DNA of 64,000 nucleotides from a virus (taxonomy: Duplodnaviria; Heunggongvirae; Uroviricota; Caudoviricetes), in IMG/VR virus record IMGVR_UViG_2703718814_000005, positions 1 to 64,000 of that record. The stretch is one strand, 5' to 3'. Shown here one piece after another: positions 51,001-54,000 of the stretch. Numbering within the stretch: position 1 is the first letter of the stretch; each line of letters begins with the position of its first letter. The position numbers are program-made.

Positions 51001-54000
51001 TTTTTTCCAGATGCGCATCTCTGCCTGAATTTCGGGCCATTTAGCACCAGGAATACATTTATGCTTAACCCACCCAATGGCGTGCAACTTAAGCTCCGGA
51101 TACATGGCGTTAACTTCTGGCATTTTCATCAACGCTTCAACGATATGTCCGTCGAATGTTGCCATGTCTTCCTGCAACAATTCCTGTGCGCTAATAACCA
51201 TATCAACGGTGATGTTTTCACATGTGTCGAACTTAACCATGACAGCGTTCTGTACTTCAGGGGCCAGCTTGTCAAAAGTGACGTTCATCGGATCGGATTC
51301 AGTCTCAACCGGGACAAAAGAAGCAGACTCCTCATCCCAGCGGTTTTCCTGCATATATTCAGCATCCCATGAATCGAGGGCAGGGCGGGGTATGCCAGGT
51401 TTATCCTCGCAGACAATAAATTTATAAGCGCAGTCCTGAGCAGCCGGATAATGTTCCAGGAATTGCCAGTGAAATTTTGCTCGAGCACGGCGTTCGTCGC
51501 CAGCTTCAATGGCTGTGGCTACAGCCACAGCGCCTTCTTCCCTTGTTGCCAGTTCGTCAGGAATAGCGGCGCAAATAAAGACTTTACTCATTTTGTTTTA
51601 ACCTCATGACAGATTTAAGGATGAACAAATCCCTGCCATTGCTGGCATATAAGAATGAAACCGGATATTTATTACGGAACTGTTTTAAAGACCTGCCGGG
51701 ATTTCGATATTATCCTGGTGAATAACTTTATCGACCGGGTAACAGTTACCGGGAATTTTCTGTTCGGTTGCTGCAGTCATACACTCCTGCATTGTCCTGT
51801 GAACACTGACTGCAATATCAACTGGCACTCCGGAAACAAGAAAAACTGTCAGAACAAGCGCAAATGCTGAATTCATTGTGCACATCCTTTTGGCATCAGA
51901 CGTAAACGAGCCAGCATTGAAACAATGCATATTTTATTTAATAGCTCCCGTTCTTGTTTTCTCTTGTTAATGGCATCTTCAGTAAATACAGGGTTACTGA
52001 TAGTGACACCAATTTCAAAACAACCTTCAGACGTATTAACGTTTGGTAATAACGTTTTCATTATCGCGTCCTCAACAATGAATTTTGTGATGCAGTGCCT
52101 GGTGCCTCCAGGTGACGTTAACCAGTTAACAATTAACGTCGGATACAGAGAATCCACCCATAACACTGTTTTTGGTTTTAACTGTTCCGCGTGCGCTTAG
52201 CCGCATTCACCGCATCACAAAATTCACTTTAAAAACGGCGGCAGAGCAGTCACGGAGTAAAACTGATACCGCCAAACGTCACCAGAAAATTGATAACAGA
52301 GGGCGTTGCAGCGGGGTTGTCACTTAAGCGTATGGTCAACCTGACAACTCGGTGTCCTCAACGGGGAAGGAATAACCCCGCCATACTTACCGCCGCGCCA
52401 TTTTGCGGGTTGCCACAACCGGAAGCGCACGGTCGAATTAAATTTAACGACACCGTACAGCGAGACGAACTTCGCCGTGCGCTTTCGTGTTGTGTGCCTG
52501 CTTTTAACCACGTCAGGCGAGGTGGTATCCTTAAAATCACCACAGTTTTAAGGATTCATTAAGCAATGTCGCAACCACCAATAAATCCGCTTAAGAACAT
52601 GAAAATTGATTACTGGTATAAAGCGCTTACAGTTGTTGGCGCTGCGTTGTTTGTCTTTAATGGAACGTCTTTTTTTGACAGATATCCCGTTGTTCCATTG
52701 GGTTTTTTGTCCTCCGGCATCTTTTTTATTGGTTTGGGGGAGTGGATTAATCACCCTCTCAAAGTGAGATTTATTGGTCCTGGAGTTTGGACTCGTGGAT
52801 ATAATAGTTCTTCGTGCGCACTCGGTATCATCTTCGACATACTTGGTTGTTTCCTGATTGTTACAGGAGTCGTCAAGTTCTTCTGATGTAAAACCGCAAA
52901 TGGGGCACGTAACGGGAATTTTGAAAAGCGTTTCTCAGGGTTCCAGAACAAAATTTTCTGCGGTCTGATTTTGCTTCTCATATTTGTGCTCCGCGTCATT
53001 GTGAGAGCACATTCTTATTCTGAGTGCCTGTTTAAACTCACTGAAGCTGAGAGCTTCTTCGCCTTCGGCAAGGCCTTCGAAGTATTCTTCGTAAGCCTTT
53101 TCCATGATTGTGTCGAAATCCATATCACTCACCTGAGTTTCTTTCCAGCCAGCGACGGGCACCATTTTCGGTTTTAAACGTTTTGCTTTTGGTATACGTC
53201 ATCGCGGTGAACGTACCGTCCTAGTTGGGGAATACGCCACATACCAGAGATTCGTTGTTGCCAAGATCGATAGTATCCATGCTGACCTCATTTCCCCTTA
53301 ACGCCGGGGTAGCGGAACTGTTTGCTGAGAACACCGTGCGGTGTCTTGATGGAGGTAATTTAGTTTTCTCATTGTTTTTCGTCAAGGTTTTTTGATGAGA
53401 AAACTCAAGTATTGGCGCAAGATAAAGCCAATACATTGAAATGTAAGGCTTTAAAATTTTGTGAAGGGATGATTATTGATGCTTGTTGCGTTTGCGAGCC
53501 TCTAATAGCTCGGTGAACAGGCGATTAAAATTCTCAACGCGGGCGCGGAGTTCGCTGAGTTGTGCTTGTTGCTCTGATTTAGGAAGTGCGCGATACAAAC
53601 GCAGCATCTCTAACTCATCTTCCGATAAGTCTAAGGCACTATCGAGTGAAACAGGGGGAGCTGGTGTTTTGTCCTCGTCGCCAAACAGTATCCAGGTTGG
53701 TGAACATTGCAATACCTCGGCGAGGCGATGCAAATTTTGCCCGCGCGGGGCTGTATGGTCACTTTCCCATAATGAAATTGATGAGCCAGATACGCCAGCA
53801 GCTTTGCTTAAACCGTTTTGACTTAAGCCTACCTGCTTACGTCTTTCTCTAATGCGTTGACCTAAAGTTTTCTCGTTCATATTTAGATATCTTAATAACC
53901 CTTGGCTTGAGATTCCTTGAGTGATTAGCATTGAGAAAACTCAATATTGGAGGTGCGATGTTTAAATCAGACGTAATTAATTTTTACGGTACGAAAGCCA

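Follow-up and report, generated by a model that had tools for sequence, protein, structure and literature searches.

Why would a phage keep a membrane-protein gene that points against its own early operon, and what becomes of the coding strand that this gene faces? The question is raised by a locus in the IMG/VR virus record IMGVR_UViG_2703718814_000005 (Caudoviricetes), of which we analysed positions 1 to 64,000, referred to below as the window. Here, a 106-codon gene on the plus strand lies within the minus-strand dicB operon of a Qin-type prophage. DicF, DicB and YdfD, the products of this operon, are toxic, and the dicB/DicF locus affects cell division and phage sensitivity. We found that the plus-strand gene (plus gene) is carried on a small mobile cassette (moron) that was recombined into the early-left (dicB) operon, replacing ydfC. 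It is overlapped in exact antisense register by a minus-strand open reading frame (minus ORF) that has probably been kept open by selection. Taken as a whole, this explanation, a moron membrane gene combined with a translatable antisense frame of the early operon, appears likely to us. Coordinates are window positions unless another locus is named (Table 1), and the evidence comes from sequence analysis, predicted structures and the literature.

The plus gene belongs to a widespread family of membrane proteins

We are highly confident that the plus ORF is genuine and that it is a moron gene. Full-length homologs of 100–111 aa with 35–57% identity were found by a word-indexed search in Yersinia enterocolitica, Herminiimonas, Reinekea and many metagenomes. 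A profile search against 1.84 billion cluster representatives returned 486 representatives from many phyla at E≤1e-3, of which 216 reach E≤1e-10; almost all have a length of 100–115 aa. In addition, a scan of species genomes located 29 loci in taxa ranging from Actinomycetes to Desulfobulbaceae. The residues W17, Y18, K19, A20, G56, G58, E59, W60, N62, H63 and P64 are invariant across the family alignment. The corresponding motifs are DYWYKA, which precedes helix 1, and GLGEWINHPL, which follows helix 2. Between enterobacterial lineages, the differences at plus-codon positions 1/2/3 amount to 12/7/35, 37/22/55 and 40/24/60. This excess of substitutions at position 3 over position 1 over position 2 indicates purifying selection in the plus frame.

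The initial annotation had described an ORF of this size with three hydrophobic helices, an AT-rich composition and its own ribosome-binding site, adjacent to DicF in a minus-strand dicB operon. Most of this description was confirmed. The reading frame is intact from ATG to TGA, and Rfam RF00039 places DicF next to it on the minus strand. The AlphaFold2 model (mean predicted local distance difference test score, pLDDT, 82) contains helices at residues 17–32, 42–62 and 85–105 and a beta-hairpin at 65–79, in agreement with the three membrane helices in the Kyte-Doolittle profile. The GC content of the ORF is 41%, compared with 54% in the adjoining DicF-precursor region and 49% in the whole window. 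As for the ribosome-binding site, a Shine-Dalgarno-like AAGGA is present, but its distance of 11 nt to the start codon is longer than optimal. The product is predicted to be a protein of the inner membrane that has three helices and a short hairpin carrying positive charge. The DYWYKA and GLGEWINHPL residues are probably on the cytoplasmic side of the membrane, judging from the charge distribution rather than from a computed topology.

The reverse assignment would make the minus ORF (WP_000344958.1, PHROG 35040, called in HannyBb and as gp39 in mEp390) the real gene and the plus ORF its hydrophobic shadow. Several annotations do call the minus ORF, and its protein cluster is large, with 1798 members. 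However, this assignment is already contradicted and scarcely credible. Distant homologs of the plus protein exist whose genes have 3–17 antisense stops, substitutions are concentrated at plus position 3, corresponding to position 1 of the minus frame, and the invariant motifs belong to the plus protein. Moreover, homologs of the minus protein occur only in enterobacterial phages, always over a member of the plus family.

Current annotations of the locus differ. The calls of the Prokaryotic Genome Annotation Pipeline (PGAP) vary by strain: the plus ORF (WP_122990131.1) is called if the minus ORF is interrupted, whereas in strain BLSE177-2012 the call is the minus ORF, and in three other strains it is neither. 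In the records of phages mEp390 and HannyBb, the minus ORF is the only one of the two to be annotated. The family defined here, small membrane proteins of wide distribution, is nameless in Pfam, PHROGs, NCBIfam and PADLOC, and current annotations either overlook it or choose the wrong strand. We found no published description of the plus gene or of its antisense overlap in the literature.

Outside enterobacteria, the family members whose contexts we examined are solitary genes in variable regions, and no partner gene recurs among them. The chromosome of Arcobacter sp. Pygsuia-1 harbors three copies with identical match statistics at three distant sites (L042, L043, L044), which suggests carriage on a repeated mobile element.

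A mobile cassette with sharp boundaries

The notion of an inserted cargo gene, already offered by the initial annotation together with a comparison to the K-12 Qin dicB operon as a check, was borne out. Identity to K-12 Qin ends at about 52505, and identity to the prophages of BL21, mEp460 and O111 ends at 52532. At the other edge (53021/53022), exactly the first 34 codons of ydfB, down to 53022, resemble K-12. The intervening 489 bp stand in place of ydfC and the last 8 codons of ydfB. Of 5426 complete E. coli genomes, about 800 contain the cassette at ≥99% identity; the others carry ydfC or a different ORF, and O157:H7 genomes, for example, lack the cassette and have ydfC instead. Its presence or absence with sharp boundaries among otherwise homologous prophages and its deviating base composition (41% GC vs 54% in the flank and 49% in the window) are those of a moron.

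Directly upstream of the plus gene, an element TGGTATC(C/T)T is kept in lineages in which the proteins are only 50–57% identical. The window version, TGGTATCCT, is also shared with the BL21 and mEp460 prophages, where a different plus-strand ORF comes directly after it. Because of this conservation across diverged lineages and the position of the BL21/mEp460 junction, we regard TGGTATCCT (52523–52531) as probably being the extended −10 promoter of the plus gene, with the cargo junction just behind it. BL21 and phage mEp460 resemble the window up to and including GGTGGTATCCTT (52532), and their plus-strand ORF also starts about 30 nt further on. Their cargo, in contrast, is an unrelated soluble protein of 66 aa (PHROG 34441) with 2 antisense stops. 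This arrangement suggests a shared promoter with exchangeable cargo at the GGTGGTATCCTT junction.

The promoter candidate overlaps a non-coding element, GTGTGCCTGCTTTTAACCACGTCAGGCGAGGTGGTATCC (52490..52535), that is conserved nearly base for base in the E. coli/Yersinia-type lineages, again at 50–57% identity of the plus proteins. It contains nested inverted repeats (GCCTG/CAGGC and CCAC/GTGG), and its conservation extends to prophages with a tRNA gene in place of DicF. In the lineage with 57% identity, such a tRNA gene is located downstream of the cassette where the window has DicF. The element may in part be the promoter; judged from its sequence, a role in the processing of the minus-strand RNA would be equally possible.

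Prophages of the ydfC type can have a small opposite-strand gene as well. It is located in the interval from ydfC to the repressor and encodes a CxxC zinc-binding protein of the ECs_2282 family with weak Lar-like matches, as in E. coli strain 164 (L006 3152..3352, plus strand). In this gene, too, the exact antisense frame has 0 stops, in this case over 66 codons.

Several results weigh against the explanation as a whole. A generic promoter scan flagged no plus-strand promoter, and a terminator scan detected nothing convincing after the plus gene; the sole terminator-like site is weak and lies inside ydfB (53063–53082). The spacing of the Shine-Dalgarno sequence is long, as described above. Searches of the plus protein against Pfam (E≤0.1), PHROGs, PADLOC and NCBIfam gave no match, including none to SieB or to any defence family. 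In fold searches with the AlphaFold2 model, no viral structure matched at E≤0.001, and the PDB yielded nothing beyond helical bundles of a generic kind. Finally, the family is not phage-linked outside enterobacteria, so that its core function need not concern phages.

An ORF runs antisense through the entire gene

According to the initial annotation, the plus ORF occupies the space where a minus-strand gene of the operon would be expected. This part did not hold, as a minus ORF runs through the same DNA and is intact in nearly all relatives. It begins at the start codon of ydfB (53123), stays in exact antisense register through the whole plus gene and ends at 52548, 18 nt past the plus start. 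It is composed of YdfB residues 1–34, a GE..IP..CPICGF segment and a 106-codon antisense tail. The intact version encodes 191 aa (WP_000344958.1, called by PGAP in strain BLSE177-2012; PHROG 35040) and is a called gene in the HannyBb record. In five other copies that we read, the ORF is uninterrupted, with 191–205 aa. Pfam searches with the minus proteins gave nothing meaningful, and YdfC, considered as a possible relative, proved to be unrelated.

In the window itself, the minus ORF is a pseudogene. An A instead of a C at 52937 converts GGA to TGA, and a 61-mer identical to the window at this site occurs in only 5 of 802 genomes. In addition, ydfA has an internal stop in the window and is intact in strains 2A, GZM7, NCTC9699 and BLSE177-2012. 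Nonsense mutations are therefore present in both ydfA and the minus ORF, which suggests that the dicB operon is decaying in this copy of the prophage; the plus gene has remained intact.

Is the antisense frame under selection?

An antisense frame of this length could be open simply by chance and codon bias. Only the plus gene would then be functional, and the minus ORF would be a shadow that gene callers such as PGAP pick because it is longer. Indeed, 8.6% of 106-codon windows from real ORFs are open in the antisense register, although none of 49 are at a GC content below 0.46. The distribution of stops in the family speaks against this possibility. The exact antisense frame has 0 stops in seven of seven phage lineages (the window, L019, L020, L011, L015, the Pantoea prophage and mEp390), vs 2–9% expected to be open each. 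The plus proteins of these lineages are 38–87% identical, and several are near saturation in synonymous divergence, with third positions differing at 52–58% of codons between deep lineages. Non-phage homologs of the same GC content (0.39–0.45), by contrast, all have 3–12 antisense stops.

The codon usage points in the same direction. TTA, CTA and TCA account for none of the 15–18 Leu/Ser codons per phage lineage, and the Leu/Ser positions themselves mostly differ between lineages. General avoidance of A-ending or rare codons can be ruled out as the cause, because A-ending codons make up 21% of the other four-fold families, and the plus gene freely uses other rare codons of this kind; they also make up 66% of the Lys/Glu/Gln codons. 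The probability of an open frame is 0.02–0.04 per lineage if the codon usage of prophage ORFs in the neighbourhood is assumed, and about 0.001–0.004 for that of low-GC ORFs. Across diverged lineages, the two frames are thus open at a higher frequency than predicted from codon usage, as would be expected for an overlapping gene pair.

A further argument comes from GETLFKIPVTCPICGFT, the 17 codons of the minus ORF past the plus stop, which are free of the overlap. This segment is conserved as protein. Among four lineages, its variable sites are distributed 8/7/14 over the minus codon positions, and in the eight codons whose amino acid never changes there are 7 variable sites, each of them a third position of the minus frame. 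The non-overlapping N-terminal segment thus looks coding, which would not be expected if the minus ORF were a shadow.

On the other side, a number of observations speak against a conventional second protein, and some of them favour a shadow. Within the overlap it is 30–40% identical between lineages in which the plus protein is 50–57% identical. Purifying selection is visible there in the plus frame and not in the minus frame; most changes affect minus codon position 1, so that the poorly conserved tail drifts at the synonymous rate of the plus frame. Its AlphaFold2 model is uninformative (pLDDT 42, shallow alignment), and the product is predicted to be disordered. The N-terminus of the minus ORF differs between an E. 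coli/Yersinia type and a Pantoea/mEp390 type. The frame closes 6–37 codons after leaving the plus gene, but in some lineages it continues in frame into ydfC, resulting in one ORF of up to 271 codons (P0067, P0070, P0071; 245–271 aa). It is broken in L019 as well as in the window, without visible loss of the plus gene. One non-phage homolog with 47% GC has 0 antisense stops, and the minus protein lacks homologs outside enterobacterial phages. Two other opposite-strand cargo genes do not have an open antisense frame: Rac sieB has 7 stops in it and the BL21 cargo 2. The idea that every opposite-strand moron needs such a frame is thereby ruled out; at the same time, these stops make the open frame specific to the plus-gene family in phages.

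In summary, we consider it unlikely that the minus ORF is a mere shadow, and probable that selection, as read from these substitution and stop patterns, has kept the antisense frame open. The family offers a natural test of selection on long antisense frames, since the same family occurs inside phage operons, where the frame is open, and outside of them, where it is full of stops. Changes of Leu codons from TTG to TTA would be separation-of-function mutations, silent on the plus strand and nonsense on the minus strand.

A recurrent position beside the repressor

In every enterobacterial context examined, the plus gene is located beside the repressor and antisense to the early lytic operon. These contexts comprise nine loci (L011–L017, L019, L020) of E. 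coli-like and Yersinia prophages, a Pantoea rodasii prophage and phage mEp390, in which the plus-family gene is situated between cro and cII. A RefSeq note describes mEp390 gp39 as 'similar to Bcep176 gp33'. We could not detect any similarity (E 0.54); gp33 is a plus-strand member of the family.

This position could also mean that the locus is mainly regulatory, with head-on transcription and an antisense RNA of about 350 nt silencing leaky transcripts of the dicB operon in the lysogen. Located upstream of DicF and dicB, the plus gene is oriented towards the dicB promoter, and in phages it is always antisense to the early operon. However, the protein is strongly conserved, also far outside phages, and hence a protein function is selected. 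We therefore regard a mainly regulatory locus as quite improbable. A regulatory side-effect of the kind proposed in the initial annotation, in which convergent transcription modulates DicF/DicB output, would nevertheless be compatible with the layout.

A possible two-strand coding unit

How might a moron membrane gene and a translatable early-operon frame work together? As long as DicA represses the dicB promoter, transcription of the plus gene would probably start at a separate promoter, presumably TGGTATCCT. Since the gene points against the DicA-repressed operon, transcription in the silent prophage would be possible. Its product would then most likely provide a membrane function expressed in the lysogen, for example exclusion of superinfecting phages or another benefit at the membrane level. 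Superinfection exclusion in particular is suggested by the position of the gene, in analogy to known systems; we consider it the best guess and yet less likely than not as the actual role. The dicB/DicF locus would gain a candidate lysogen-expressed function.

Transcription of the early operon has to pass through the plus gene before it arrives at DicF, dicB, ydfD and the exonuclease. Most likely, the selected trait is a translatable minus frame, which would shield the early transcript from Rho-dependent polarity, from base pairing with the mRNA of the plus gene, or from both. The frame would remain open and the sequence still be free to vary, because translation itself would be selected. A folded second protein is a less likely reason for the open frame, while a functional antisense polypeptide may exist. 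We tentatively propose, leaning to some extent towards doubt, a two-strand coding unit: an old mobile membrane gene inside an early-operon ORF, in which selection purges TTA, CTA and TCA, and in which the selected trait is either translation through the gene or a hydropathically complementary antisense polypeptide acting on the membrane protein at induction.

Genomic context

The prophage adjoins rspB and carries hokD, rem, ydfU, ydfT, cspB, essD and rrrQ, and is therefore a more complete relative of K-12 Qin, located at the same site of the chromosome. According to Rfam, Pfam and PGAP, its operon has the features of the Qin-type dicB operon, with DicF, dicB and ydfD downstream of a DicA-type repressor, ydfA and ydfB. 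In an Rfam search at a permissive threshold, the cassette gave no match. The only hits were DicF and a sub-threshold one to STnc100 (52029..52238, minus strand; 33.5 bits vs a gathering score of 47), which spans the region between DicF and dicB together with the first part of dicB. No tRNA gene was found in the window.

A second phage-derived block lies upstream at about 28700..37200 (NZ_CP075852.1 25000..33484). It includes an 8.4-kb gene with an LPD38 domain, Ea22-like, TraR/DksA and Ant genes and several pseudogenes, and it abuts a truncated gene for a 4Fe-4S protein beside ynfF.

Table 1. Position of the plus gene, the minus ORF and associated features in the window and in related loci
Feature	Location	Strand	Remarks
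Plus gene (106-aa three-helix membrane protein)	52566..52886	+	ATG 52566, TGA 52884-52886; PGAP WP_122990131.1
Cassette, 489 bp, 41% GC	52533..53021		Replaces ydfC and ydfB C-terminus of K-12 Qin
Candidate extended −10 element of plus gene, TGGTATCCT	52523..52531	+	Putative; conserved in E. coli/Yersinia-type lineages
Shine-Dalgarno-like AAGGA	52550..52554	+	11 nt 5′ of plus-gene ATG; suboptimal spacing
Minus ORF, antisense register with plus gene	52548..53123	-	Pseudogene in window
TGA nonsense codon in minus ORF	52935..52937	-	GGA (Gly) in five other copies
N-terminal segment of minus ORF outside overlap, GETLFKIPVTCPICGFT	52887..52937	-	Coding-type substitution pattern in minus frame
DicF-precursor region	52290..52532	-	Common to K-12 Qin (to ~52505) and BL21/mEp460-type prophages (to 52532)
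DicF small RNA	52236..52287	-	Rfam RF00039, 72.5 bits, E 4.5e-15
dicB	51873..52061	-	Pfam DicB; PGAP annotation
ydfD	51685..51876	-	Pfam DUF1482; PGAP annotation
ydfB N-terminal 34 codons (remnant)	53022..53123	-	Joined in frame to minus ORF of cassette
ydfA (DUF1391) pseudogene	53125..53280	-	Internal stop in window
Sigma-70-like promoter of dicB operon, TTGACG-17-TAAATT	53385..53357	-	Promoter scan
DicA-like helix-turn-helix repressor	53473..53880	-	Pfam HTH_3; PGAP annotation
Alternative cargo of BL21/mEp460	L010 2775..2975 (BL21); L004 2775..2975 (phage mEp460)	+	66 aa, PHROG 34441
tRNA genes in place of DicF	L011 5802..5875; L012 3952..4033; L014 3482..3563	-	Gly-CCC or 82-nt Asn-GTT
Phage mEp390 minus ORF (gp39)	L060 3456..3911	-	RefSeq annotates only gp39
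Phage mEp390 plus gene	L060 ~3495..3815	+

Comparison with known systems

The closest relative in terms of gene content is K-12 Qin (dicA, ydfA, ydfB, ydfC, dicF, dicB, ydfD), which shares with the window the site beside rspB, the gene order, DicF, dicB and ydfD. The window differs from it by the cassette in place of ydfC and the last 8 ydfB codons and by the internal stop in ydfA.

A membrane-protein gene in opposite orientation within the early-left operon near the repressor is known from sieB of Rac, lambda and P22. The Rac genes are arranged as racR(−), ydaF(−), sieB(+), kilR(−), recE(−), and sieB is expressed in the lysogen. The plus gene matches this position and orientation, but its product has no sequence relation to the SieB family and is shorter (106 vs 162 aa). 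Unlike the plus gene, sieB has stops in its exact antisense frame, 7 of them.

There is also a precedent for an antisense overlap between an exclusion gene and a lytic gene. In Pseudomonas phage Fc02, a gene next to the repressor that is read in the lysogeny direction overlaps an opposite-strand early lytic gene (olg1 / gene 10). Both products were made from expression constructs, and both exclude phages (PMC9936078). Fc02 is a Mu/B3-like phage that is unrelated to the prophage described here, as are the proteins, and its evidence is experimental, whereas that for the pair in the dicB operon is evolutionary.

Antisense overlapping genes have been described in E. coli O157:H7 as well, for example ano/ECs2385 (PMC5960689; PMC9927249). 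They have protein-coding ORFs on both strands of one locus in common with the dicB-operon pair. In O157:H7, a short, young ORF is located inside an old annotated gene. The situation in the dicB operon is reversed, as the embedded gene is old and widespread and the longer ORF enclosing it is taxonomically restricted. The opposite-strand membrane gene in an early-left operon is therefore of a known kind, represented by sieB, and Fc02 provides a precedent for the overlap. What is new here is the protein family, the repeated occurrence of its members within an early-operon ORF in exact register, and the difference in antisense stops between members embedded in phages and those that are free-standing.

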